Below are positions 1,981 through 25,813 of a stretch of 25,813 nt of DNA, in pieces (the first letter of the stretch is position 1; each line of letters starts with the position of its first letter). A program made the translations under genes and the position numbers. The notes under the pieces are model-generated. The model ran no database searches and was not told the DNA's origin. It was given only the letters and a program-made list of their open reading frames with translations. Origin of the DNA: Chiloscyllium plagiosum. Taxonomy: Eukaryota. The stretch spans positions 13,584,506-13,610,318 of the forward strand of contig NC_057754.1 of NCBI RefSeq assembly GCF_004010195.1, in the 5' to 3' direction.

Positions 1981-4095
1981 TGCTCTCCACTAACCTTCAA
2001 ATTTGGTGTCATCTGCAGACTTACTAACTATACCTCTTATGTTCACATAAAAATCATTTATATAAATGACTAAAAGTAGTGGACCCAACACCGATCCTAA
2101 TGACACTCAACTGCTCACAGGCCTCCATTCTGAAGTGCAACCCTCCACCACCACTTTCTGTCTTCTACCTTCGAGCCAGTTCTGGATCCAAATTGCTGCT
2201 CTCCCTGTATTCCATGAAGTCTAACCTTGTGAAGCCGTTTCCAATGGGGAACCATTTTGAATGCCCGACTAAAGTTCATTTAGATCGTATCCCTCACTCT
2301 GCTCTCATAAATCCTCTTTGTTCCTTCTTCAAAAACACAACCAAGTTCGTCAGACATTATTTCCCACGCCATGTTGACTATCCTTGATCAGTCTTTGCCT
2401 TTACAAATAATTGTAAGTCCTGTCCCTCAGGATTCTGTCCAATACCTTGCCAACCACCAACATCAGGCTCACCATTCTATAGTTCCCTGGCTTTTCATTG
2501 CCACCTTTCGTAAGTATTGGTATTGCATTAGCCAACGTGCAATCTTCCTGCAACTCACTGGTTAAAATTCATTACACAAATATGTCAGCAAGGGGCCCAG
2601 CAATCACTTCCTTAGCTTCCCATGAAGTTCGGGGACACACTTCATCAGGCCCTGGGGATTTATCCACTTTCATACATGTCAAGACATCCAGTACCTCTTC
2701 CTCTGTAATATGGATAATTTTCAAGATGTAACTATCTATTTTCCCACACTCTCTGTCTTCCATGTTCTGTTCCACAGTAAATACTGATGCAAAATGCTCG
2801 TTTATAATCTCCCCCATCTCCTGTGGCACCACACATAGGCCGCCATGCTGATCATTGAGAAGCCTCATTCTCTCCCTAGTTATCATTTTGCCCTGATTGT
2901 ATTTATAAAAGCCTTAGGATTATCCTTAACCCTATTTGCCAACGCTATCTCATGTCCCCTTTTTGCCCTCCAGATTTCCCTCTTAAGTATACTCCTACTG
3001 CCATTATACGTTTCTATGGGTTCACTCGATCTCTCCTGTCTATACCTGATAGATGCTTCCTTCTTTGTTTTGTCTAAAACCTCAATTTCTCTCGGTATCC
3101 AGCATTCCATATGCCAGAACCCTTTCCTTTCCCCTACAGGAATGTACTGTCTCTGGACACTAGTTATCTTATTGCTGAAGGCTTCCCATTTTCCAGCAAA
3201 CATCTTCCCCCAACCAGCTTTTGAAAGTTCTTGCCTAATATCGTCAAAATTAGCCTTCATCCAATTTAGAACTTTTAGGTCCGGTCTATCCTTTCCACCA
3301 TTATTTTAAAACTAATAGAATTGTGGTCGCTGGCCCCAAGATGGTCCCCCAATAACAACTCAGTCTCCTGCTCTGCCACATTTCCCAAGATTAGGTCAAG
3401 TTTTGTACCTTCCTTAAAAATTTTTATCCACATACTGAATCAGAAAATTTTATTGCACACACTTAAATTCCCCTCCATCTTAACCATCAACACTATGGAA
3501 GACCCAGTCTAGGTTTGGAAAGTTAAAATACCCTCCCATAACCACCCTATTATTCTTACAGATAACTGAAATCTCCTTAAAAATCTGCTTCTCAATTTCC
3601 TGCTGACTATTAGGGGTTCTATAATAAAATCCCAATAAGGTGATCATCCCTTTCTTATTTCTCAGTTCCACCCAAATAACTTCCCTGAATGTATTCCCCA
3701 GAATATCCTCCCTAAGTACACCTTTAATGCTATCCCTTATCAAAAACACTACTCCCCCTCCTCTCTTGCCCTCCTTCTATCCTTCTCAGAACATTTGTAA
3801 CCTGAAACATTGACCTGCCAGTCCTGTCCATCCATGAGCCACCATTCTGTATTTGCTATGATATCCCAGTTTCATGATCCTAACCATGCCCTGAGTTCAT
3901 CTGCATTGAACGCTCTCTAGCATGGAAGTAAATGCACTTTTATTTATGACGACACTTTGTTCTCTGCTTTTTCCCTGCCCCTCCTGACTGTTTGACTCGC
4001 TTCTTTTCGCAGTATCAGATTGTTCTCTTTCCACACTACCTCCCTGGCTCCCACCCCCTTCCCGCCTCCCCCACATTACTAGTTTAAATGCTCCC
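1981..4095 (-). mobile_element. CR1 LINE fragment (ORF2 endonuclease, tether and N-terminal RT), decayed
   Basis: Minus-strand peptides EVIWVELRNKKGMITLLGFYYRTPNS, VVMGGYFNFPNLDW, KANFDDIRQEL, LANRVKDNPKAF, MKVDKSPGPDEVCPR. The 5' end lies at the CR1 ORF1/ORF2 junction motif (GGGAGCATTTAAACTAG, ~4079-4095). Confidence 0.9.
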
Positions 4096-4363: not shown

Positions 4364-4794
4364 CACAGCACTATAAATCTTGCGCAAACATGCTGAAGGT
4401 TTCTAAGTCGCATTTATTGGCGGTTGAGGACTGTTCATAAGTCCATAGGACAACAGATAAAAACAGTTTTTAATATGGTTCACAGTGAATACTGACTCTG
4501 GCTATTTCACCGACCGTGTGAGGGCCGAATTGGTTTCTAAATATTTGGGAATGGCTGTGATCTTCCCACTTACTTTCATTGAGAATATAAACCCTGCAAT
4601 ATGCATAACTATGAATTGACATTCTGGGGGAAAATGTGAACAAATATTTTTCGATTTATTTTCTTATATATTTGTGGGAGTTGGCTCGCCAGCAATAATA
4701 GCACATCCCTATTTGCTCTTAAGAAGATGATGGTGAGCTGCTTTTTTGAATCACTGCCGTCCACTTCCTGTGGGTTGACCCCCTCCACTTTCTG

Positions 4795-4931
4795 AGTAGC
4801 GGCACGGTGGTTCAGTAGTTAGTACTGCTGCCTCACAGCGCCAGGGACCCAAGTTGAATTCCAGCCTCAGGCGACTGTCTGTGTGAAGTTTGCACATTCT
4901 CCCCGTGTCTGTGTGGGTTTCCTCCCACAGT
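4795..4931 (+). mobile_element. HE1-type tRNA-derived SINE (V-SINE), 3'-truncated
   Basis: GCGGCACGGTGGTTCAGTAGTTAG (A box) ... CAAGTTGAATTCC (B box), then the V-SINE core GTCTGTGTGAAGTTTGCACATTCTCCCCGTGTCTGTGTGGGTTTCCTCC typical of elasmobranch HE1. Confidence 0.85.
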
Positions 4932-5797
4932 TAGAGTGTCTCTTATTGGTGATGGTCATTGCTTGGCATTCGTGTGGCGTGAATGTTACCTACCACTTGT
5001 CGGCCCGAGCCTGGATATTGTCCAGATCTTGTTGCATTTGAGCACGGACTACTTTAGTATCAGAGGAGCCGGAATGGTGCTGAACACTGCAATCATTGGC
5101 GAACATCCCCACTTCTGACCTTATGACAGAGGGAAGGTCATTGATGAAACATCTGAAGATTTTTGGGCTTGATGGACTGAAGGACTCCAGCAGAGATGCC
5201 CTGGAGCTGAGATGACTGACCCTCCACAGCGACAATCATCTTCCTTTGTGCCAGGTATAACTCTAACCAGCGGACTGTTTGTTATAAAATCCATTGATTC
5301 CAGTTTTGCCAGTGCTCCTTGATGCCATACTCAGTCAAATGCGGCCTTGATGCCAAGGGCTGTCACTTTCACATCAACTCTGGAATTCAGCTCTTTTGGC
5401 CATGTTTGAACCAAGGTTGTAATGAGATCAGGAGCTGAGTGACCCTGGCGAAACCCAAACTGGTCGGCACTGAGCAGGTGCTGCTGGATAGCTCTGTTGA
5501 TGACCGCTACCATTGCACGCTGATTGGGCGGGAAGTGGCCGGCATGGATTTATCCTGTCTTTTTGTGTACAGGACATACCAGGACAGTTGTCGGGGAGAT
5601 GCAAGTGTTGTAACTGTACTGGAAGAGCTTGGCTAAGGGAGCATCATATTCTGTAGCACACGTCTTCAGTACTAATACAAGAATGTTATCAGGACCCATT
5701 GCCTTTGAAGTATCCCGAGCCTCCAGCCGTTTCTTGATATCACGTCGAATGAATAGAATTGACTGGAGCTTGGTATCTGTGATGCTGGGGACCTCTT

Positions 5798-7535
5798 TAA
5801 AAGCGCGAAGGAGCCGTGGTTTAATAAGGAATTGGAATCCCTTGTTAAATGGAAGAGGGCGGCCTATCTCAAGATGAGACGTGAAGGTTCATTTGGGGCG
5901 ATTGAGAGTTATAGGGTAGCCAGGAAGGACCTGAAGAGAGAGCTAAGAGCAGCAAGGAGGGAACATGAAACGTCCTTAGTCGGTAGGATTAGGGAAAACC
6001 CTAAGGCTTTCTATAGGTATGTTAGGAATAAAAGAATGACTAGGGTAGGAATAGGTCCAGTCAAGGATAGTAGTGGGAAGTTGCGTGTGGAGGCGGAAGA
6101 GATGGGGGAGACACTGAATGAATACTTTTCTTCAGTATTTACTCAGGAACAGGGCATTGTCGTCGATGTGAATACCGAGTCACAAATAAGTAGAATGGAT
6201 GGCTGTGAGGTATGTAGAGAAGAGGTGTTGGAAATCCTGGAAAAGGTGAAAATAGATAAGTCCCCTGGGCCTGATGGCATTTATCCTAGGATTCTCTGGG
6301 AAGCAAGGGAGGAGATTGCAGAGCCATTGGCCTTGATTTTTATGTCCTCTTTGTCTACAGGAGTAGTGCCAGAAGACTGGAGGATAGCAAATGTGGTACC
6401 CTTGTNNNNNNNNNNNNNNNNNNNNNNNNNNNNNNNNNNNNNNNNNNNNNNNNNNNNNNNNNNNNNNNNNNNNNNNNNNNNNNNNNNNNNNNNNNNNNNN
6501 NNNNNNNNNNNNNNNNNNNNNNNNNNNNNNNNNNNNNNNNNNNNNNNNNNNNNNNNNNNNNNNNNNNNNNNNNNNNNNNNNNNNNNNNNNNNNNNNNNNN
6601 NNNNNNNNNNNNNNNNNNNNNNNNNNNNNNNNNNNNNNNNNNNNNNNNNNNNNNNNNNNNNNNNNNNNNNNNNNNNNNNNNNNNNNNNNNNNNNNNNNNN
6701 NNNNNNNNNNNNNNNNNNNNNNNNNNNNNNNNNNNNNNNNNNNNNNNNNNNNNNNNNNNNNNNNNNNNNNNNNNNNNNNNNNNNNNNNNNNNNNNNNNNN
6801 NNNNNNNNNNNNNNNNNNNNNNNNNNNNNNNNNNNNNNNNNNNNNNNNNNNNNNNNNNNNNNNNNNNNNNNNNNNNNNNNNNNNNNNNNNNNNNNNNNNN
6901 NNNNNNNNNNNNNNNNNNNNNNNNNNNNNNNNNNNNNNNNNNNNNNNNNNNNNNNNNNNNNNNNNNNNNNNNNNNNNNNNNNNNNNNNNNNNNNNNNNNN
7001 NNNNNNNNNNNNNNNNNNNNNNNNNNNNNNNNNNNNNNNNNNNNNNNNNNNNNNNNNNNNNNNNNNNNNNNNNNNNNNNNNNNNNNNNNNNNNNNNNNNN
7101 NNNNNNNNNNNNNNNNNNNNNNNNNNNNNNNNNNNNNNNNNNNNNNNNNNNNNNNNNNNNNNNNNNNNNNNNNNNNNNNNNNNNNNNNNNNNNNNNNNNN
7201 NNNNNNNNNNNNNNNNNNNNNNNNNNNNNNNNNNNNNNNNNNNNNNNNNNNNNNNNNNNNNNNNNNNNNNNNNNNNNNNNNNNNNNNNNNNNNNTAAATT
7301 AAGGGGGGGTAGATATAGGACTGAAGTTAGGGGTAGTTTCTTCACTCAGCGAGTCGTAAGTTCATGGAATGCCCTGCCAGTAGCAGTGGTGGAATCTACC
7401 TCTTTATGGGCATTTAAGCGGGCATTGGATAGGTATATGGAGGATAGTGGGTTAGTATAGGTTAGGTGGGCTTGGATCGGCGCAACATCGAGGGCCAAAG
7501 GGCCTGTACTGCGCTGTATTCTTCTATGTTCTATG
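5798..7535 (+). mobile_element. Young 5'-truncated CR1 LINE (ORF2 tether/RT to 3' UTR), spans assembly gap
   Basis: Stop-free frame ..IRENPKAFYRYVRNKR..KIDKSPGPDGIYPRILWEAREEIAEPL..VPEDWRIANVVPL, and after the gap KLRGGRYRTEVRGSFFTQRVVSSWNALP. CR1 3' tail GGGCCAAAGGGCCTGTACTGCGCTGT..TTCTATGTTCTATG. Confidence 0.92.
6406..7293. other. Assembly gap (888 N)
   Basis: Run of N inside the CR1 copy. Confidence 1.
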
Positions 7536-7904
7536 AACCTAAGATGGATAATTCACTCGGCACCTCTGACTGAAGATTGTTGCGAATACATCAAACTTAT
7601 CTGTTGCACTGATGTGCTGGGTTCCTCCATCACTGAGGATGGGGTATCTGTAAAGCCTCCTCCTCCAATGATTTGTTTAATTCTCCATCTCCATTCACGA
7701 CTGGATTTGGAAGGACGAAGATCTGATCGTTTGGTTGTGGGATCGCTTAGCTCTGCCTATCACTTGCTGTTTATGCTGTTTGGCACACAAGTAGTCCGGT
7801 CACCAGGTTGACACCTGATGTTTAGGTATGTCTGATACTGTGAGGACATGTCCTCCTGCAGTCACCGTTGAACCAGGGTTGAGCCCCTGGTTGCATCGGG
7901 TAGA

Positions 7905-8096
7905 GAGGCGAAAGTGAGGACTGCAGATGCTGGAGATCAGAGTCAAGATTAGAGTGGTGCTGGAGAATCACAGCAGGTCAGGCAAGATCCGAGGAGTAGG
8001 CCTCTCATTCCTGATGAAGGGCTCCTCCCCGAACCATCGAGTTTCCTGCTCATTGGATGCTGCCTGACCTGCTGTGCTTTTCCAGCACCACTCTAA
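7905..8096. mobile_element. Penelope terminal-repeat (pLTR)-derived palindromic insertion with degenerate hammerhead core
   Basis: Inverted arms 7949-8000 and 8045-8096 (TTAGAGTGGTGCTGGA..CAGCAGGTCAGGCA vs TGCCTGACCTGCTG..TCCAGCACCACTCTAA). The loop contains CTGATGAAGGGC..CCCGAACCATC. Same family as 16217-16348 and 25645-25813. Confidence 0.75.
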
Positions 8097-8499
8097 CGTT
8101 GAGTAGGGTATATCCCAGGCCATGACGTTGCAGATTGTGCTGGAGTAGAGTTCAACTGCTGTTGATGGCCCACTGTGCATCATGGATGCCCAGTTTTGAG
8201 CTTTTAGATCGGTTTGAAGTCTGCCCAGGTTAGCACAGTGATAGTGCCACACAACACGATGGAGGTTATTCTCAAATGTGAAGGCGGGACTTTGTCTCCA
8301 CCAGGACAGTGCGGTGGTCACTTTTACCTATACTGCCATGGGCATATTAATAAGGATGACATCAAGTGTATTTTTTTTTTCCTTTTGTAGATTCCTTCAC
8401 CATTTGCTGCAGATCTAGTCTAACAGACATATCTTTTCGAACCCGACCAGCTTGATCAGTAATGCTGCTGCTGAGCCACTCTTGTTTATGGACACTGTA

Positions 8500-8772
8500 G
8501 TGGATATCTACTATTGAAGACGTATGTTACAGAATATGCTGTTCCCCTAGCCACGTTCTTACAGTACTGTTACAACACTTGCAACTACCCGGCAATGTGG
8601 AGAACTGACCAGGTGTGTCCTGTACACAAAAAGCAGGACAAATCCATAGCAGCCAATTACTGCTCTTCATCATCAGTAATGTGATAGAAGGGGTCATCAA
8701 CAGAGCTATCCAGCAGCGTCTGCTCAGCAACAACCTGCTCAGTGCCAACCAGTTTGGGTTTTGTCAGGGTCA
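8500..8772 (+). mobile_element. Inverted RT fragment of the same LINE family inserted in its endonuclease region
   Basis: Plus-strand ..IISNVIEGVINRAIQQRLLSNNLLSANQFGFCQGH is homologous to the minus-strand VINRAIQQHLLSADQFGFRQGH at 5440-5513. Flanked on both sides by minus-strand EN sequence. Confidence 0.8.
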
Positions 8773-9269
8773 TCTAGGCCCCCCAGAGTACATTTTGCGC
8801 TGCTGACACACTCAATGCTTCCTTCAAGTGTTGCGCAACATTGCGGAGTACTGGTTAAGACGAAGGAGGATGATATATGATAACCAGTAAGAGGTTTCCT
8901 TGCCCATGTTTAATCTGAGCCATGAGACTTCATGGGGTCCCCAGTCGATATCAAGGACTCCCAGGGCAACTCCCACCCGACCGTATACCACTGTGCTCCC
9001 ACCTCTGCTCAGTCTGCCCTTCCGGTGGGACAAGATGATTCCAGGGATATTAATGGCGGTGTCTGAGGTGTTATTTGTAAAGTATGATTCCGTAAGAATG
9101 ATTACTTCAGGCTGTTGCTTGACTAGTCTAAGAGACAGCTCTCCCATTTTCGGCACTATCCCCCAGGTGTTAGTGAGGAGGACTTTGCACGCCGACAGAG
9201 CTGTTTGTCTTCTTTTTTCTGATTCCAAGGTCAATGCCAGGTCCTTTGTTGTGACTTTCTAGCAATTGA

Positions 9270-9568
9270 TACAACTGAGTGAATTGCTAGGCCATTTCAG
9301 AGGGCAGTTGGGAGTCAACCACAGTGCTGTGGCTCCGAGTTACATGTAGTCCGGACCAGGTAAGGATAGCAGATTTCTTTCCCGAAAGGACATTGGTGAT
9401 CCAGAGGGTTTTTTTCTGACAATTGGCAATGGTCATCAATTGACTCTTAATTTTGAATTCAAATTCCACCGTCTGCCGTGGCGGTATTCAAGCCCAGGTC
9501 CCCAAGCCATTATTCTGGGCTTCAGTATTAATAGTCGACCGATAGTACTACAATGCCACCGCCTCCCC
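9270..9568 (-). mobile_element. SacSINE1/DeuSINE-type head: tRNA-derived Pol III promoter plus Deu-type body
   Basis: Minus strand GGGGAGGCGGTGGCATTGTAG (A-box-like, ~9548-9558), GGCTTGAATAC (B-box-like, ~9484-9494), GGTGGAATTTGAATTC, then AATGTCCTTTCGGGAAAGAAATCTGCTATCCTTACCTGGTCCGGACTACATGTAACTC..GTGGTTGACTC..CTGCCCTCTGAAATGGCCTAGC, recognised as the shark DeuSINE body. Confidence 0.75.
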
Positions 9569-10178
9569 AGGAATATCAGGAGAGATCAGGATGTAGTGTG
9601 AGCAGCAACCCATCAGGTGAGAAAATCCCCAAGCAACTTGATTGAATGCCTATCAATGTTGAATATATACATTAAATCCAGATTAGATGCATCATAAAAT
9701 GAGGCAAAAGAAGTTATTTTCATTATGTGATGAACAAATGATGAAAATAGAACAAAAAGAAAAATAAATAAAATCCGGAAGGGCAGGCATAGAGTATTTT
9801 TGGAACAAATGGCCTAAAACACTATTGAGTATAAAAGTATTTTTTCAAGTGGGATGTGCATTATAGAATAATAGCAGCTTAATGAGAAATGCGATTGGAT
9901 AAGGTCCTACGTGAATAAAATGTCTGAAAGCGCTTTTTAAACCTGCATTAATAGGCTTCTTCATTTACTTGTAGTGTACATCTTTGCTGAGGACACCTTT
10001 TCTCATGATGTTCAGAATGCATTCAATATGAAAAAAAACAGTGCAGAACCAATTTGCTCCTCTTATTATTTACTTGTATTTATTTCATTACAGATTTTCT
10101 GGTAATAAGTTTAGAAAGTTCATGTTTCGCTCAAAACTTACAGAAGATCCCCTTTTAAAACTTGTCACACTGTGTTTA

Positions 10179-13925: not shown

Positions 13926-16125
13926 TACAGAGCCAGAAGGATATACACCTAAGAAACAGGCATTTTGGACTAACTCAACCATGCTGACCGGAATATCCTA
14001 AAATGTTTAGTCCTATTTGCCAGCACTAGGCCCATATGCCTCTAAACTCTTCCTATTCATATGCACATCCATTAAATGTTGTAACTCTACCAGCCTGCAC
14101 CGCTTCTTCTGGCAGCTTATTTCATTCATGCACCACCCAATGGGTGAAACAACTGGATCTTAGGTATGTGTTAAATTTTTTCCCGGTCATCTTCAACCTC
14201 TGCCGTCAAGTTTGAGACTTTCCCACCTCAGGAAAAGGCCTTGTACTATCCATGCGGCTCATTATTATGTAAACGTCTCTAAGTTCGCCCCTCGGCCTCC
14301 AACGCTCCAGGGAAAATAAGCCCAACCTATTCGGCCTCTCCCTATTGGTAAAACTCTCCTGGCAAACTGGTTGTAAAAATTTTCTGAATTCTTTCAAGTT
14401 TGACAACATCCTTTCTGTAGGAGGAAGACCATAATTCCACACACTATTCCAATAGTGGTCGAACCAATGTCCTCCCAGCCACACCATGACCTCCTAGATT
14501 CAGTACTTAATGCACTGCCCAATAAGGGCAAGCATACCAAAAGCTTACTTCACTCTACTATCGACCTGCGACTCCACTTTCAAGGAACTATGAACATTCA
14601 CTCCAAGTTCCCTTTGCTCAGCAACGCTCCTCAAGACCTTACCATTAAGTGTATAAGTCCTGCCCTGATTTGTCTTTCCAAAATGCAGTACCTCACTTTT
14701 ATCTACATAGATCTCCATCTGCCTTTCCCCATCTGATAAAGATCCTGTTGCATTTTCAGGTAATCTTCTTCGCTGTCTACTATACTTCCAATTATGGTGT
14801 CATCTGCAAACATTCAAACCAAACTTCTTTAGTTGACATCAAAATCATTTATATCAATGATGAAAAGCAATGGGTACAGGACTGATCCGTGTGGCACACC
14901 CCAGGTCATAGGCCTCCAGTCTGAAAAGCAACTCTCCACTACCACCCTCTGCCTTCTATCCTCGAGCCAGTTCTGTGTCCACAAAGCTAGTTGTCACTCT
15001 ATTCCGTGTGATCTAACCTTGCTAACCAGTCGACCATGAGGAACCTTGACGAAAACCTTATTGAACCCCATGTAGATCATGTCCACTGCTCTGCTCTCAT
15101 CAATTTTCTTTGTTGCTTCTTCAAAACTAATAATCAAGTTAGTGAGACACAAATTTACGCGCACAAAGCCTGATTGACTATCCTTAAGTAGTCCTTGCTT
15201 TTCCTAATTCATGCAAATTCTATCCCTCAGGGTTCCCTCCAATGACTTGCCTAACATTGATGTCAGGATCACCGGTCTATAATTACCTATCATATCCTAG
15301 TCGCCATTTTTAAAAAAAAATAGTGGCAACATGGTAGTCAACCTCCAGTCTTCTAATACCTCATCACAGGCTTTTGATAATACAAATATTTCAGCAACGA
15401 GCCTCATAAAAACTTCTATAGCTTCCTACAGAGTTCCAAGTTACACCTGACCACTTACCCACTTTTATACCTTTTAAGACGTAGGATACCTCCTCCTCTG
15501 TATTATGGACATTGTTTTCAAGATATCGCTATTTATTTGCCTTCGTTCTCTATCTTCCACATCCTTCCCCACAGTCAGCTCTGATGGAAAATACTCCCCA
15601 ACTTAGCATCTCCCCAATCTCCTTTGGTTCCACACATAGATGCCTTGCTAATTTTTAAGGGGCAAGATTGTCTCCCTAGTTAGCCTTTTATCCTTAATGT
15701 ATTTGTAGAATCGTTTTGGATTCTCCTTACCTCTATTTTCCAAAACTGTTTCCGGTTCCCTTTTTGTCTCTTGATTTTCCGCTTTAAGTATACTTCTATT
15801 GCCTTGCTACTCTTCAATGGATTCCCTCGTTCTCTTCCGTCTACACCTGACATATATTTCCTTCTTTACCAAACTTTGAATTTCTGTAGTCATCTAGCAT
15901 TCTCTATACTTCCAGCTTGCTCTTTACCCTACAAAAACAGAGTCTCTGGACTCACGTTATCTTATGTTTGAAGGCTTGCCATTTTCCAGCCATCCCTTCA
16001 CCTGGGACATTCGCCCACAATCTCGCTTTTGAAAGATCTTGCCAAATATTATCAAAATGGCTTTAATCGAATTCCAATCACTACTTTAAAAATAATAAAA
16101 TTATGGTCACTAGCCCCAAATTGCT

Positions 16126-16160
16126 CCCCCCCCCCACCCCCACCACCACCACCACCCCCA
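16126..16160 (+). repeat. C-run/(CCA)n microsatellite
   Basis: CCCCCCCCCCACCCCACCACCACCACCACCCCCCA expanded inside CR1; source of the poly-Pro ORF. Confidence 0.9.
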
Positions 16161-16216
16161 CGGATACCTCTGTCACCTGTCTTGTCTTATTTCCCAAGAT
16201 TAGGACAAAGAGTGTG

Positions 16217-16348
16217 GAATTACTGATGAAGGGCTTATGCTCGAAACGTCAACACTCATGCTGCACGGATACTGCCTGACCTGTTGTGCTTTTCCAGCAT
16301 CACACTGTTAGATTCTGACGCCCAGCATCTGCAGTCCTCACTTTCACC
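16217..16348 (+). mobile_element. Penelope pLTR-derived insertion in CR1
   Basis: GAATTACTGATGAAGGGCTTATGCTCGAAACGTC..CTGCCTGACCTGTTGTGCTTTTCCAGCA..CCAGCATCTGCAGTCCTCACTTTC. CR1 sequence homologous to 3381-3450 flanks both sides. Confidence 0.8.
16223..16250 (+). ncRNA. Minimal hammerhead ribozyme core motif
   Basis: CUGAUGA-A-GGGC-UUAU-GCUC-GAAA-CGUC: complete conserved core, 4-bp stem II, palindromic ACGU in place of stem III, GUC cleavage triplet. Stem I is poorly paired in this copy. Confidence 0.65.
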
Positions 16349-16984
16349 AAGAGTAGGTATATTGACATATTCAATCAGAAAATCTTCCTGCGCACACTTA
16401 ATGAAGTCTTCTCCATCTCATCCCTAAACCTATGACAGTCTCAGTCTATGTTTGGAAAGGCAAAATTCCCGACCATTATCACCGTATTATTCTTACAGAT
16501 AACTGAGATCTTTTTACACATCTGTTCTCACTTTCCTGATGACTATTGTGCGATCTTTAGAACAATCCCAATTAGATGGTTATCGCTTTCTTATTTCTCA
16601 TTTCTCATTTCCACCCAAATAACTTCCCTGGGTATATTCCCATGTGACATCAAAAGGATTTGCATCCAAACACATTTCCTTCAGGCATAATCATCAGTAA
16701 CATGAAAACTCTTCCTAATCTCCCACATCCGACTAGAAGACCACATCAGTCTACTAAAGGCAATCTTTGCACTTTAGCAATCCATAGACCCAGAAAATGG
16801 CACAGTCTCCCTGCTCTGTAAACAATGCTCCATGCTAGTTTTATACCTATGTTCTTACATATTTAAAGTTCAATCAAGAGATATATCTCAATAGAAGCAT
16901 ATACAGTTTAAAAAGAACCTACTCGACATATCTTTGTAGATTTACACACAAAAAAGAGAACCAGTAAGGTTTTGTGCCCTATAT

Positions 16985-19974: not shown

Positions 19975-20475
19975 GGGTCATCTCTGTTTTATTTCAGCTC
20001 GCCAATTTCTGATCCAAACCACCAAGTCATCCTCAATCCCATGCCTCCGTATTTTGTGCATTAGCCTACCGTGGGGAAACTTATCTAACGCCTTACTGAA
20101 ATCCATATACACAACTGCTTTACCCTCATCCACGTGTTTGGTCACCATCTCAAAGAACTCAATAAGGTTCAAGAGACACGTCCTATTCTTCACAAAACCG
20201 TGTTGACTATCGCTAACCAACTTATTCCATTCTAGGTTATTATAAATCCTACCTCTTATAGTCTTTCCAACACTTTACCCACAACTGACGTAAGGCTTAC
20301 TGGTCTATACTTATCAGAGTTTATTTTTTCTCTACTCCCCGACTTGAACAATTGGGCAACATTTGCTCTCCTCCAGCCTTCTGGTACTATTCCTATAATA
20401 ATGACGACATAAAGATCAAAGTCAAAGGCTATGCAATCTCCTGTCTGGCTTCCCAGAGAATCCCAGGATAAATCC
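19975..20475 (-). mobile_element. CR1 RT fragment
   Basis: SDSQHGFVKNRTCLLNLIEFFEMVTKHVDEGKAVVYMDFSKALDKFPHGRL; abuts the 5' end of the plus-strand CR1. Confidence 0.9.
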
Positions 20476-23400
20476 AGGAAAGGAGAGTCGCTAATTTAAA
20501 TCTTTAAAACCTTACCTCGAGCGTCGGAGTCCTCCATTTCTGTTTTCAGCAGCAAGAAGAGCGGGTGCTTGGACCAGGGGCCTGCCGGGAAAGGTGAGTC
20601 ACTAATTTAAATCTTTACATCTGACATCGGGGAGCAGAGGGTTCTGGGAAAAGAGGGACTTCTTCCCCTCAGCTAAATAAATGAGTGCTTTCTAAACCCG
20701 ATATCCTACCCTTGTAGGCCTCCTGTCCATCCATCTCCTCTAAACTTAAACACCAGGGACACATCAGGTAAGCTTCTCTTGAGGGAACTAGAAAGGATGA
20801 CAGTGCAGGGAGAGAAATGTTCCTCCTGCACGATGTTTGAGGTGTAGGACGCTATTAGTGTCCTATCCAAGTACATCTGCAGAAAGTGCATCTAGCTCTT
20901 GCTCCTCCAAGACCGCATTAGGGAACTGGAGCGAAAGCTGGATCAACTTGTTTTTTTTTTCGGTAGGCAGAGTCTGTGATAGATAAGAGTTACTGGGAGT
21001 AGTTACTCCTATGCACGAAGAAAGCTGGGTAACTGTTAGAAGGGACATAAAACAGTCAGTGCAGGGATCATTCACCTGGAAAACAAGTATACCATTTTGG
21101 ATACTGTTGGCGGGATGACTTCCCAGGGGCAAGCATTGGGGTGCAGTTCTCTGGTGCAGAGTTTGTCCCTGTTCTACAGAAGGGTAGGGGGGAAAGGAGG
21201 TTAGTCATTGGGAACTCAATAATCAGAGGGTCAGACAGAAGATTTCTTGGGAACGAAAGAGACTCACCGTTGGTGTGTTGCCTCCCAGGTGCCATGGTCC
21301 ATGTTGCCTTAGATCGGTTATTTGGGTTCCTGAAGGAAGTGGGTGACCAGCCACAAATCATGGTCCACACGACATATGTAGAAAGAGGGATAGGTATGTA
21401 AGCCAGGATTTCGTGAAGCTAGGGTGGAAGCTGAGAGCACGAACAAAGTTGTTAACTCTGGTTTGTTACCTGTGCCACATGATAGTAAGGCGAGAAACAG
21501 GCAGAGATATGACCTGAACACGAGGCTGCAGGGATAATGCTGGAGGGAGCATTTCAGGTATATGTATAATTTGGCCTCATTCTGGGAAAGGTGGGACTTC
21601 TACAAACAGGATGGTCTTCACTTGAACCAGAGGGGTACTAATATTCTGGGTGGGAAATTTGCTAGAGCTATTCAGGTGGGTTAACTCGCTCAGCAGGGGG
21701 ATATGAACCTGTGGCGTAGTTCCAGTGCACAGGAGACTTTGAGTAGGGAGGGCATGGACAGAATTTCACAGTCAAGGAATGTGCCGGAAGACAGCAAGGT
21801 GGTTGGAAGTGTGCTTCAAAGCCAGAAGTATTTGGAATAAGATAGGTGAGCTTGCAGCATGGATAGGTGCCTGGTACATTGATGTTGTGGCCAATCCAAA
21901 GACATGGATAGAGCAGGGTCAGGAATGGATGTTGCAGATTCCAGGGTTTAGACCTTCCATTAAGATCAGGGAAGGTGGTAAAAGAAGGGGAGGCGTGGCT
22001 TTATTAGTCAAGGATAGTAAAGCAGTGGCTGAAAGAGCTTTTGACAAGGACTCGTCTACTGAGGTGTAATGGCCTGAGGTTAGAAACAGGAGAGGAGAGG
22101 TCACACTGCTGGGAGTGTTTTTATATAGGACTCCACAAATTTCCAGGAATGTGGAGGAGGGGATTGGCAAAACGATTCTGGGTAAGAGTGAAAGGAAAAG
22201 GATGGTCTTTAACTTCCCCAACATTGACTGGAAAAGCTACAAGTCTAGTATGTAGCATGGATCAATTTTTGTCCAATGTGTGCAGGAGGGTTTCTTGACG
22301 CAGTATGTCAAAGGGCCAACAAGAGGGGAAGCCACATTGGATCTGGTGGTTGGTAATGAACCAGGCCAGGTGTTTGCTTTAGTGGGAGGTGAGCAATTTG
22401 GAGAGAGTGACCGTAATTTGGTTATGTTTGGTTTAGCGATTGAAAGAGGTAGGTGCATGCCACAGGGCAAGACTTATAGTTGAGGGAAGAGCAATTATAA
22501 TATTACGCAAGACGGAAGAGGTATAGAATGGGGTAGCAAAATGCAGGGGAGGGGAACTATCGAAATGTGGAGCTGGTTGAAGGAACAGATATTGCATGTC
22601 CTTGATAGGTATGTCCCTGTCAGGCAGGGAGGAAGTGATAAGTTAAGGGAACGGTGGTTACTAAAGAAATTGTATCTCCTGTTAAGCGGAAGAGGGAAGC
22701 TTATGTGACATTGAGATGAGATGGTTCAGATGAGGCGATGGAGAGTTACAGATTAGCTAGCGAGGATTTAAAGGGAGAGTTAAGATGAGCAACGAGGGGA
22801 CATGAGCAGTCATTAGCAGGAAGAATAAATGAGAACCTTAAAGTTTTCTATGGGTATGTGAGGAATAAAACGATGACTAGGGTAGGAATAAGGCCAGTCA
22901 AAGACAGAAGTAGGAAGTTGTGTATAGACCCTGTGGCAATCGCAGAGTTGCTAAACGAATATTTCTCATCTGCTTTCACTCAGGAAAAGGAGAATATTGT
23001 AGAGGAGAAGACGGAGATGCGACTATTGGACTAGAAAGGTGGAGGTTAGTAAGGAAGAGGTGTTATCAACTCGAAAAGATGTGAAAGTAGATAAGTCCCC
23101 TGGAGAGTGGTGGGATTTATCCAAAGATTCTCTGAAATGCTAGGGAGGAGATGGCGGAGGCTTTGGCCTTGATCTTTGAGTCGTCTTTGTCTCCAGGTCG
23201 AGTACCAGAGGACTGGAGGATTGCAAATGTTGTGCTCTTGTTCAAGAAGGACAATAGAGATGACCCAGGTAATTATATATATCTGTGAGCTTTCCGTCTG
23301 TTGTAGGAAAAGTTTTGGAAAAGAGTATATGAGATAGGATTTAAAATCATGTAGCAAGCAATAATTTGATTGGAGATAGTCAACATGGTTTTTTTAAGGG

Positions 23401-24638
23401 AAGTCGTGTCTCACAATCCTCACTGAGTTTTTTTTTTGAGAAGATGACCAAGCATGTGAATGAAGGTATGGCAGTTGACATGGTGTACATGGACTTCAAA
23501 CAAGCCTTTGATTAGATTCCACATTGATAGGCTTTTGGAGATAATGTGGAGGAATGGGATTGATGGTCATTTAGCAGTTTAGATTAGAAACTGGCTTTCT
23601 AAGAAGGCAGCGAGTGGTGGTTGATGAAAAATATTCAGCCTGGAATCCGGTTACTAGTGGTGTGCCACAAGGATCTGTTTTGGACCATTGCTGTTTGTGG
23701 TTTTTATAAATGACTTAGACGCAGGCATAGGTGGATGGGTTAGTAAGTTTGCAGATTACACTAAAGTCGGTGAGTGATGGACAGTGTGGAAGAATGTTGC
23801 AGTTTGCAGGGGGACTTGGACAAACTGCAGAATTGTTCTGAGAGGTGGCAAACGGAATTCAATGCAGATAAATGTGAAGTGATTCACTTTGGGATGAATA
23901 ACAGGAAGGCAGAATACTGGGTTAGTAGAAATATTCTTGGTAGTGTGGATGTGCAGAAAGATCTTGGTGTCCATGTACATAGATCCCTGAAAGTTGCACC
24001 CAGGTTAATATTGCTGTTAAGAAGGCATACGGTATGCTAGGTTTTATTCGTAGAGGGATTGAGTTCCAGAGTCGTGATGTCACACTGCAGCTGCACAAAA
24101 CGCTGCTGTGGCTTCATTTGGAATATTCATTACAGTTTTGGTCGTCCATGACAGGAAGGATGTGGAAGCATTGGAAAAGGTGCAGAGGAGATCTACCAGG
24201 ATGTTGCCTGGTCTGGAGGGAAGGTCGTATGAGGAAAGACTGACAGACTTGGGTCTGTTCTCATTGGAGAATATGGAGCTAAACGGGGATTTAAGAGAGA
24301 CATCCAAGATGATCAGAGGATTAGATATGGTGGACAGTGAGAGTCTGTTTCATAGGATGATGATGTTGGCTTGTACGAGGGGACATAGCTGCAAATTGAG
24401 GGGTGATAGATTTAAGACAGATGTCAGATGCAGTTTTTTGATAATGCCGTGGAAGGCCCTGCCTCCCAATGTAGTTAACCCAGCCACATGAAGGGCATTT
24501 AAACCATCCTTGGATAAATATATGGAAGATGATGGGATAGTGGAGGGGGATGGACTTGGATTAGTTCACAGGTCGGTGCCTCATCGAGGGTCGAAGTGCC
24601 TCTTCTGTGACGTATTGTTCTATATTCTGCGTTCTATA
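20476..24638 (+). mobile_element. Near full-length CR1 LINE (5' UTR, ORF1, ORF2, 3' UTR), inactivated
   Basis: ORF1 from ATG ~20797: CSSCTMFEV..YICRKCI.LLLLQDRIRELERKLDQL (Zn finger/leucine zipper), then SGNH-esterase-like LVIGNSIIRGSDRRF..VCCLPGA..DGLHLN. ORF2: CFKARSIWNKIGEL, RRGGVALLVKD, PTRGEATLDLV, DKSP, MDF..AFD, GVPQGSV, KFADY, LQGDLDKL, LEKVQRRSTRMLPGL. Tail TTCTATATTCTGCGTTCTAT. Many stops and frameshifts. Confidence 0.93.
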
Positions 24639-25644: not shown

Positions 25645-25813
25645 ACTACCTTTTATCTTAGCCTGCTGGACACACTTTCCTCATTCCTGAAGAAGGGATT
25701 ATGCTCGAAACGTCGATTCTCCTGTTCCTTGGATGCTGCCTGACCTGCTGCGCTTTTCCAGCAACACATTTTCAGCTCTGATCTCCAGCATCTGCAGCCC
25801 TCACTTTCTCTCA
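25645..25813 (+). mobile_element. Penelope 3'/pLTR fragment with hammerhead core (25687-25714)
   Basis: CCTCATTC-CTGAAGA-A-GGGA-TTAT-GCTC-GAAA-CGTC-GATTCTCC..GGATGCTGCCTGACCTGCTGCGCTTTTCCAGCA..CTCCAGCATCTGCAGCCCTCACTTTCTC; same family as 16217-16348. Confidence 0.8.

Follow-up and report, generated by a model that had tools for sequence, protein, structure and literature searches.

A decayed copy of an elasmobranch CR1-Zenon LINE, identified by sequence comparison and broken by four interruptions, occupies positions 9568-4670 of the minus strand of the window, the 25,813-nt stretch of DNA analysed here. The best explanation of its structure is probably a 5'-complete, dead member of a family of about 3.3 kb that has a tRNA-derived type-2 Pol III promoter as its 5' end. 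The LINE family itself is already known; the tRNA-type head on a coding Zenon is present in the deposited sequences and is undescribed in the main text of the paper that catalogued them (PMC13343379).

Structure of the element in the window

The putative Zenon assignment of the window copy rests on the match of its 5' sequence to consensuses classified in PMC13343379. Its first 54 nt are identical to the 5' end of RhiTyp_Zenon-1 at 43 of 54 positions, ungapped and from consensus base 1 (counted by eye), which is more than chance, and by eye the window sequence remains colinear with the elasmobranch Zenon consensuses across the body and linker, within the first 400 nt given for each. The 382 nt that separate the 5' end from the EN motif contain no minus-strand ORF of at least 80 aa upstream of the linker.

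Similarity search placed EN and then RT in the order of P0026, a full-length and, like P0030, more distant relative with the domains Exo_endo_phos_2 and RVT_1 (APE endonuclease and reverse transcriptase): residues 24-105 matched at 9186-8944, 171-313 at 8499-8091, 449-653 at 5789-5250 and 673-751 at 5166-4939. The arrangement claimed in the preliminary description was borne out in order and coordinates, with head, body, an 87-nt linker and the EN motif (~9186-9183) following one another on the minus strand with no tail or poly-A between them; so was its claim that EN and RT run colinearly to a 3' tail, given the ordered P0026 matches and the tail at 4721-4692.

The four interruptions and the lack of a match for about 200 C-terminal codons (P0026 residues 752-967, with no significant match in 4500-9700) mark this copy as a fossil, a state that the preliminary description left out. 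The longest stop-free stretch across the four coding pieces is 120 aa, the decayed EN and RT pieces were unrecognised by Pfam, and a search for a target-site duplication around the copy found none. A decayed A-rich end, a candidate poly-A tail, lies near 4680-4655. The parts of the element and the sequences inserted into it are listed in Table 1.

Table 1. Parts of the interrupted element and its insertions, in window coordinates
Feature	Position	Strand	Remarks
tRNA-derived head	9480..9568	-	decayed A box 9558-9548, B box 9494-9484; 9568 is the family 5' end
Body, common to the LINE and the short (SINE) form	9274..9479	-	in 7/7 elasmobranch Zenon consensuses (first 400 nt given)
LINE-specific linker	9187..9273	-	short form departs for the tail at 9273
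APE endonuclease, N-terminal part, frameshifted	8783..9186	-	P0026 residues 24-105, 34% identity, E 3e-11; 55-68% identity to copies in whale shark
Insertion within EN: inverted RT fragment from the same family	8509..8772	+	75% identical to 5440-5674; in other copies only 14-28 nt separate 8472-8494 from 8782-8783 (among the best 15 of 917 contig joints)
Remaining endonuclease and start of inter-domain region	8103..8500	-	P0026 residues 171-313, E 2e-8
Inserted pair of an unrelated short repeat	7905..8102	.	self-inverted; recurs at 16219-16348 and 25680-25808; presumably a Penelope-type terminal repeat
Inter-domain coding region, decayed	7540..7900	-	P0030 residues 382-408 at 7640-7560, E 0.007
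Inserted 3' fragment of a CR1-type LINE	5810..7535	+	73% identical over 599 nt to 22648-23241; ORF 5763-7460; contains assembly gap 6406-7294
Reverse transcriptase region, decayed	4930..5808	-	P0026 residues 449-751, E 5e-26
Inserted fragment of another tRNA-headed SINE	~4800..4928	+	adjoins the loss of ~200 C-terminal codons; the fragment is presumably HE1/V-SINE-like
ORF end and 3' tail, decayed A-rich end	4670..4760	-	4721-4692 is the tail common to the short form

Family-wide occurrence of the head and the EN junction

Published consensuses, taken from the supplement of Stuart et al. 2026 (PMC13343379) as the first 400 nt per family (1,003 families by the paper's count), revealed the same 5' architecture across sharks and rays. 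Within those 400 nt, all seven shark and ray Zenon consensuses, from five species, have a tRNA-type head and body followed by the EN region with no ORF1; each starts 5-10 nt before the A box and carries the B box, body and linker. The head and body are absent from the same portion of 3/3 hagfish and coelacanth Zenons. In the supplement as sampled, one body motif occurred seven times and three B-box motifs six times, all in elasmobranch Zenon rows. The preliminary description had named a conventional 5' UTR and ORF1 upstream of EN as the structure that would speak against it, and the full-length consensuses, as far as their sequence is given, contain no ORF1 and no other 5' UTR before EN.

These families are substantial: the tabulated data of PMC13343379 give 59-2313 scored copies for each elasmobranch Zenon, longest insertions of 2.9-4.3 kb and 0-3 copies scored intact, one family having no figure for the last. 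Elasmobranch Zenon is already catalogued in that paper, where absence of ORF1 is the rule, and a CR1-Zenon-like LINE also figures in the whale shark genome preprint (10.1101/443036). The terms 'tRNA', 'promoter' and 'polymerase III' occur 0 times in the main text of PMC13343379. The elasmobranch CR1-Zenons (CarCar, HypSab, RhiTyp, ScyCan and SquAca; PMC13343379) share the same 5' 400 nt, a length of ~3.3 kb and a single EN-RT frame with no ORF1 in the sequence given, and the window element, a decayed member, shows no structural difference from them.

The claim of a tRNA-like head with A and B boxes holds for the family consensuses, as judged from their first 400 nt, and is weak for the window copy alone. 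In its decayed head, a tRNA was recognised neither by ARAGORN nor by two Rfam scans of the window; the window boxes have 2+3 mismatches to the standard motifs, and 14% of shuffles are equally good. In the portions of the consensuses given, the boxes are far nearer the standard motifs, with tRNA-like spacing at the 5' end (by eye) and exact B-box motifs in 6/7. Folding of the head was not above shuffles (z 0.09), and the same held for the body end and the tail.

A short form with the same ends

Contigs from sequencing runs X1, X13 and X16, which represent three organisms, contain the junction at other copies. Among the best 15 of 917 joints, EN (9189) is bridged to 9284 in 4, 7 and 8 contigs of X1, X13 and X16 and to 9453 in 2, 3 and 1, the joints in other copies spanning 9189 to 9244-9453. 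Read depth over the linker was 4326, 12163 and 21387 in the three runs, compared with 0-67 in bins upstream of 9602. In addition, among 16 predicted proteins that are extended at the N terminus, four (P0001, P0003, P0015 and P0084) have a match to the body (p 0.001-0.007, uncorrected), compared with 0/15 for a control flank.

The contigs also revealed a short element. Among the best 24 of 3133 loose ends, 286, 304 and 265 contigs of X1, X13 and X16 break at 9273, a single departure point at which the body is joined to the LINE's own 3' tail, starting inside the last codons of the ORF; by eye, the junction has only 1 nt of microhomology. The loose-end consensus matches 23/30 nt of the window tail at 4721-4692, the best match in the window (p 0.002 vs 500 shuffles); a scan of the window with a 20-nt tail motif gave no match at 3 mismatches. 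The short form is made only of the two ends of the LINE, namely head, body and tail, in agreement with the earlier proposal of a SINE that shares all three with the LINE. By a crude measure, linker depth is 8-13% of that of the adjacent body bin, suggesting that the short form is commoner than the long one.

An ATG at 9324-9322, carried at 77-87% of contig depth, was considered as the ORF start. The window copy, P0015 and P0084 have this ATG in frame; we rejected it because it is out of frame by eye in the sequence given for five consensuses and because the window copy has linker indels. Searches for further relatives added little: the window EN retrieved no homologue among longer proteins and P0002 retrieved one spliced gene model, a metagenome scan gave two weak loci (L001 and L002) unrelated at the DNA level, and viral and GTDB scans gave either none or two chance motif matches (L003 and L004).

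Comparison with known elements

The preliminary description assigned the head to SacSINE1 and the body to the DeuSINE type. Neither label survived, and what stands is the architecture, which is real, family-wide and found in catalogued elasmobranch Zenons. By eye, the window head and the Zenon consensus heads differ from SacSINE1 nt 2-78 (Kojima 2018 supplement), two Deu-domain motifs from a published alignment had 0 matches in the window at <=3 mismatches, and the Deu domain alignment shows no colinear likeness. The body also failed to match the Meta and UCON3 domains as printed (by eye), and its motifs are absent from a bivalve SINE supplement. With SacSINE1 rejected as the SINE and the Deu domain as the body, a connection to the ancient DeuSINE superfamily can no longer be upheld, leaving the origin of the Deu domain unexplained, contrary to what the earlier label implied. 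SacSINE1 and the DeuSINEs (PMC5499810, PMC4824008) resemble the short form in pairing a tRNA head with a LINE-derived tail in shark; SacSINE1 differs in its head and in having the Deu domain, absent here, and its tail is all that it has in common with an L2 (L2-2_CM).

Closer parallels exist in other lineages. Lepidopteran Zenon is likewise a single-ORF element with a short partner, Persaeus, built from the 5' end, ORF end and 3' UTR (PMC6740152); in contrast, Persaeus lacks a Pol III promoter and any homology to tRNA, 5S or 7SL, whereas the long and short shark forms are both tRNA-headed. Bov-tA, AfroSINE and CoeSINE4, bipartite LINE-derived SINEs, similarly combine a tRNA head with LINE 5' and 3' parts, although there only the form that is deleted and non-coding has gained the head, with RTE or Vingi as donors, whereas here a coding CR1-group LINE is headed (PMC5786205). 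RTE-1_DAn and elements related to it, of the RTE clade, are LINEs holding tRNA-like sequence, according to the one-sentence description in PMC5786205, and are a possible precedent for a tRNA-bearing LINE. Small RNA/L1 and Alu/L1 chimeras also have a Pol III RNA, in matching orientation, fused 5' of a LINE (PMC13174262), but these are single insertions, mostly of 5'-truncated L1, whereas shark Zenon is multi-copy with one junction.

Transcription of the element

We propose that Pol III would start upstream of the A box, at a distance of a few bases, and read through the apparently T4-depleted body and ORF, and that the one RNA so made would be both message and template for target-primed reverse transcription, so that each full-length copy would regenerate its own promoter. 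Such Pol III transcription from the head, with its single dual-purpose RNA and renewed promoter, is probable given the sequence features. Lacking a cap, a Pol III RNA serves poorly as a message, and translation without a standard in-frame AUG start is a more tentative part of the proposal. The full combination, an autonomous 3.3-kb Pol III-made coding LINE with a sense strand purged of T runs, uncapped translation without a standard in-frame AUG and a SINE arising in one step by ORF deletion, is quite possible while falling somewhat short of probable. Retroelements driven by Pol III have been described as short, at 100-1263 nt (PMC10886601).

The distribution of T4+ runs bears on this proposal and on its main rival, in which the LINE carries the head as a constant component, the coding RNA comes from Pol II (by a promoter in the body or read-through from host genes) and the A and B boxes serve the short form or are a relic. 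Zenon pieces contain 3 such runs in 2779 nt, whereas the CR1 sequence of this window has 51 in 7649 nt (binomial p 7.5e-5), making them about six times rarer in Zenon, and by eye none occurs in the seven visible elasmobranch consensus starts; they are present in 3/3 of the headless Zenon starts given. The scarcity does not, however, exceed that in the element's own shuffles (p 0.12 mononucleotide, 0.54 dinucleotide), and a Penelope-like control of only 944 nt is equally low (TTTT ratio 0.33 vs 0.36). Pol II transcription would also agree with the description of LINEs as Pol II-transcribed (PMC10886601, PMC5786205) and would supply a capped RNA, which is easier to translate. The deficit relative to same-window CR1 and the 5' end just before the A box in 7/7 consensuses, with boxes kept in the LINEs of five species in the sequence given, make the Pol II reading unlikely. 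In RNA run X21, 214 of 12.96 million reads matched, with no pile-up of starts or ends.

Origin of the short form and of the fusion

That the window locus merely records a SINE inserted by chance beside a truncated LINE can practically be dismissed: this copy is old and heavily rearranged, but the junction recurs in contigs from each of three organisms, among whale shark gene models and in the published consensus starts, answering the concern of the preliminary description that it might be unique. Many independent one-off insertion chimeras of the U6/L1 or Alu/L1 type, with a master LINE having some other 5' end, have a documented model in L1 (PMC13174262) and would be expected to have variable truncation points. 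Instead, seven consensuses from five species all pass from one body position into one and the same linker, and among the consensus starts given for those species no Zenon with another 5' end was recovered, so that this reading is already largely refuted and very improbable.

The order of events is a closer question. We slightly favour derivation of the short form from the Zenon LINE by loss of the linker together with almost the entire ORF, its body being the LINE 5' UTR. The reverse order, in which a short SINE with a Zenon-borrowed tail came first and a Zenon lineage later exchanged the 5' UTR it had for the SINE's head and body, captured through template switching, falls only just short of an even chance. 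The Zenon starts given from outside elasmobranchs lack the head, which makes the head a gain, and Persaeus has no Pol III promoter (PMC6740152); in bivalves, CR1-Zenon supplies the tails that drive several tRNA SINEs (PMC11481361), SINE/LINE chimeras arise in mammals (PMC13174262), and the short form seems, by the crude depth measure, to outnumber the long one. On the other hand, Zenon is known to shed deletion derivatives, the lepidopteran element having given the internally deleted Persaeus (PMC6740152), and none of the widespread SINE domains compared is a match for the body, so that nothing shows it to be older than the LINE.

Implications

The standard division assigns Pol II to LINEs and Pol III to SINEs. 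A coding LINE that opens with a tRNA-type promoter, which is otherwise as a rule confined to short SINEs without coding capacity, may be a protein-coding element made by Pol III. If true, a LINE family that retains a tRNA promoter in five shark and ray species, its long copies numbering hundreds to thousands per genome, would break that split and would show that Pol III can produce a coding RNA of 3.3 kb without precluding its translation. The LINE-SINE pair with a common head, body and tail offers a concrete test of where SINE bodies originate (PMC5786205).

Structure and decay of the Zenon copy

By the match of its 5′ end to published consensuses, the element is a decayed minus-strand copy of an elasmobranch CR1-Zenon LINE, which runs from 9568 to ~4670. 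Its head and body are followed by a linker of 87 nt, by remnants of endonuclease (EN) and reverse transcriptase (RT), and by a short tail. Protein comparison with a full-length relative, P0026 (967 aa, with RVT_1 and Exo_endo_phos_2), revealed colinear pieces, bearing out the order head, body, EN, RT and tail on this strand that a preliminary description had proposed; no significant match to P0026 residues 752-967 was found in the copy. The copy is dead, and its stop-free stretches reach 120 aa at most. An inverted RT piece sits within the endonuclease. Orthologous contigs from organisms B and C, two of the three organisms compared, share it, indicating an old rearrangement. Because contigs of both organisms span the junction of this piece, and one contig of C also spans the 5′ flank, the insertion is older than the split of B and C from A.

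Features of the Zenon copy and of the remainder of the window
Feature	Position	Strand	Remarks
P0026 residues 24-105	9186-8944	minus	match to P0026
P0026 residues 171-313	8499-8091	minus	match to P0026
P0026 residues 449-653	5789-5250	minus	match to P0026
P0026 residues 673-751	5166-4939	minus	match to P0026
Inverted RT piece of own family	8509-8772		inserted in Zenon copy; 75% identity to 5440-5674
Short repeat pair	7905-8102		interrupts Zenon copy
CR1 fragment with N gap	5810-7535		interrupts Zenon copy
Fragment of another SINE	~4800-4928		interrupts Zenon copy
Other decayed CR1-type LINE copies	2050-3900, 14300-16700, 20000-20470	minus	70-80% alike; sense strand rich in T runs
Other decayed CR1-type LINE copy	21700-24500	plus	as preceding row
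RT-like region	537-1480	plus	198-aa ORF (662-1258), presumably Penelope-like; no Pfam match
Antigen-receptor V-type pseudogene	10520-10178	minus	V-set E 0.019; stops and frameshift; ends at perfect RSS heptamer (10217), then 23-nt spacer and weak nonamer; second heptamer nearby (10174)
Second V-like remnant	13900-13760	minus	YYC motif at end; no Pfam match, no clear heptamer

The head-to-EN junction in the Zenon family

The head-to-EN junction is a family trait and not unique to the window locus, as it recurs in contigs, in proteins and in seven published consensuses. When positions 8380-9760 were compared at 80% likeness with 4 of 24 runs (contig runs X1, X13 and X16, from three organisms, and one RNA run), the linker bin (9226-9272) reached contig depths of 4326, 12163 and 21387, respectively, versus 0-67 in bins upstream of 9602. 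Among the 15 of 917 joint rows listed, five connected the EN start (9189) with 9244, 9265, 9266, 9284 or 9453, with 4, 2, 4, 4 and 2 contigs in X1, 7, 3, 4, 7 and 3 in X13, and 4, 3, 5, 8 and 1 in X16. In other copies, 8472-8494 is joined directly to 8782-8783, and these copies therefore lack the inverted piece. A filter for EN-start likeness passed 18 of 86 fetched proteins, 15 of them with at least 10 residues upstream, to which P0081 was added by hand (n = 16). Four of these 16 N-terminally extended proteins (P0001, P0003 and P0015, predicted by whale shark gene models, and P0084, encoded on a Logan contig) matched translations of the body (p 0.001-0.007, uncorrected), and the control flank was matched by 0 of 15.

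The family itself is known. Stuart et al. 2026 (PMC13343379, Supplementary Table 2) list 10 Zenon consensuses, and in the first 400 nt compared for each, head, body and linker begin all seven elasmobranch consensuses (five species, 2886-3314 nt) and are absent from the two hagfish and one coelacanth consensuses. Across the 400-nt cells of this supplement, one body motif occurs seven times and three B-box motifs six times, always in elasmobranch Zenon rows. In row SquAca_Zenon-1 of Supplementary Table 3, the intact-ORF proportion is printed as 675852, apparently a spreadsheet conversion. ORF1 is absent from both the window copy and the consensuses. Single-ORF CR1-group members such as ZfL2-2 (excerpts of PMC3880073) are well known, so a Zenon without ORF1 is not new.

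By comparison, the tRNA-headed architecture is apparently undescribed. The terms 'tRNA', 'promoter' and 'polymerase III' have no occurrence in the main text of PMC13343379, and the literature searched, which omits most subscription journals and Repbase Reports, revealed no account of an autonomous LINE family with a Pol III-type head. Alu/L1 and small RNA/L1 chimeras, as excerpts of PMC13174262 describe them, are single insertions, in contrast to the family-wide Zenon junction.

Identity of the head and body

Judged on the window copy alone, the evidence for a tRNA-type head is weak. Neither ARAGORN nor Rfam found a tRNA in the window head, and the best A/B-box pair (9558 and 9494), scored with general A/B-box consensus patterns, had 5 mismatches, a score equalled by 14% of shuffles. 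The minimum-energy fold has a closing 7-bp stem resembling a tRNA acceptor stem, with stability no greater than that of shuffles. By eye, 43 of the first 54 nt are identical, ungapped, to RhiTyp_Zenon-1 from its base 1, indicating that 9568 is the true 5′ end. In all seven elasmobranch consensuses the element starts 5-10 nt ahead of the A box, the position at which transcription from a tRNA-type promoter would be expected to initiate.

The head had been assigned to SacSINE1 and the body to the Deu type, and neither label held. SacSINE1 nt 2-78, as printed in the PMC5786205 supplement, differs by eye from the Zenon head, and this identity was rejected; SacSINE1 has been linked to an L2 through its tail alone (Luchetti et al., PMC5499810, in part). 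A Deu-type body was also rejected: two Deu motifs had no match in the window at ≤3 mismatches, and the body showed no colinear likeness by eye to the Deu alignment in the PMC7245038 supplement, with which the consensus body shares only one 10-nt word. The Meta and UCON3 domains did not match the body by eye. What stood was the order of the architecture and, of the accompanying interpretation, a family-wide junction and a short form with shared body and tail.

The short form and the direction of origin

Loose ends at 9273 (286, 304 and 265 contigs in X1, X13 and X16) match 4692-4721, the top site in the window for their 30-nt consensus (23 of 30 positions, p 0.002), indicating a common short element in which a single junction connects the body with the tail of the LINE itself. 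This tail starts within the last codons of the LINE ORF, as it does in Persaeus, a deletion derivative of lepidopteran Zenon that is described in excerpts of PMC6740152 as lacking a Pol III promoter.

Since other Zenons lack the head, it represents a gain in elasmobranch Zenon. We lean slightly toward an order in which the LINE would first have acquired the tRNA head by fusion and a deletion would then have produced the SINE. A transfer in the opposite direction, in which the LINE would have received head and body from a SINE carrying a Zenon tail, is a serious possibility that falls a little short of even, and it is favoured by the several SINEs driven by CR1-Zenon tails in bivalves (PMC11481361, in part).

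Transcription and translation

We propose a Pol III mechanism as a reading of the Zenon architecture, and Pol III transcription of the elasmobranch LINE appears, on balance, probable. Within the window, 2779 nt of Zenon contain 3 T4+ runs and 7649 nt of CR1 contain 51 (p 7.5e-5), and TTT observed/expected is 0.48 versus 1.51. In the first 400 nt, no T4+ runs are visible in the seven elasmobranch consensuses, whereas all three headless Zenon starts contain them. This scarcity is suggestive of Pol III. The T4+ count was not below that of shuffles of the element itself (p 0.12 and 0.54), and a Penelope-like control, which is short, had an equally low T-run level. The RNA run showed no start site among 214 matching reads, mostly over head and body.

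In the five of seven consensuses that were read by eye, the EN frame extends upstream without interruption through an Arg/Lys-rich stretch until a stop codon at the end of the body, and the interval between this stop and EN contains no ATG in frame. The stop lies two codons after an ATG in the CarCar, HypSab and ScyCan consensuses, relative to which the frame is shifted by one base in RhiTyp and SquAca-1. A linker ATG is conserved but out of the EN frame, and whale shark gene models starting there enter the EN frame at differing places. These features, in consensuses built from old copies of which only HypSab is visible to the EN motif, point to a non-standard translation start of the Zenon ORF, which, if true, would suit an uncapped RNA.
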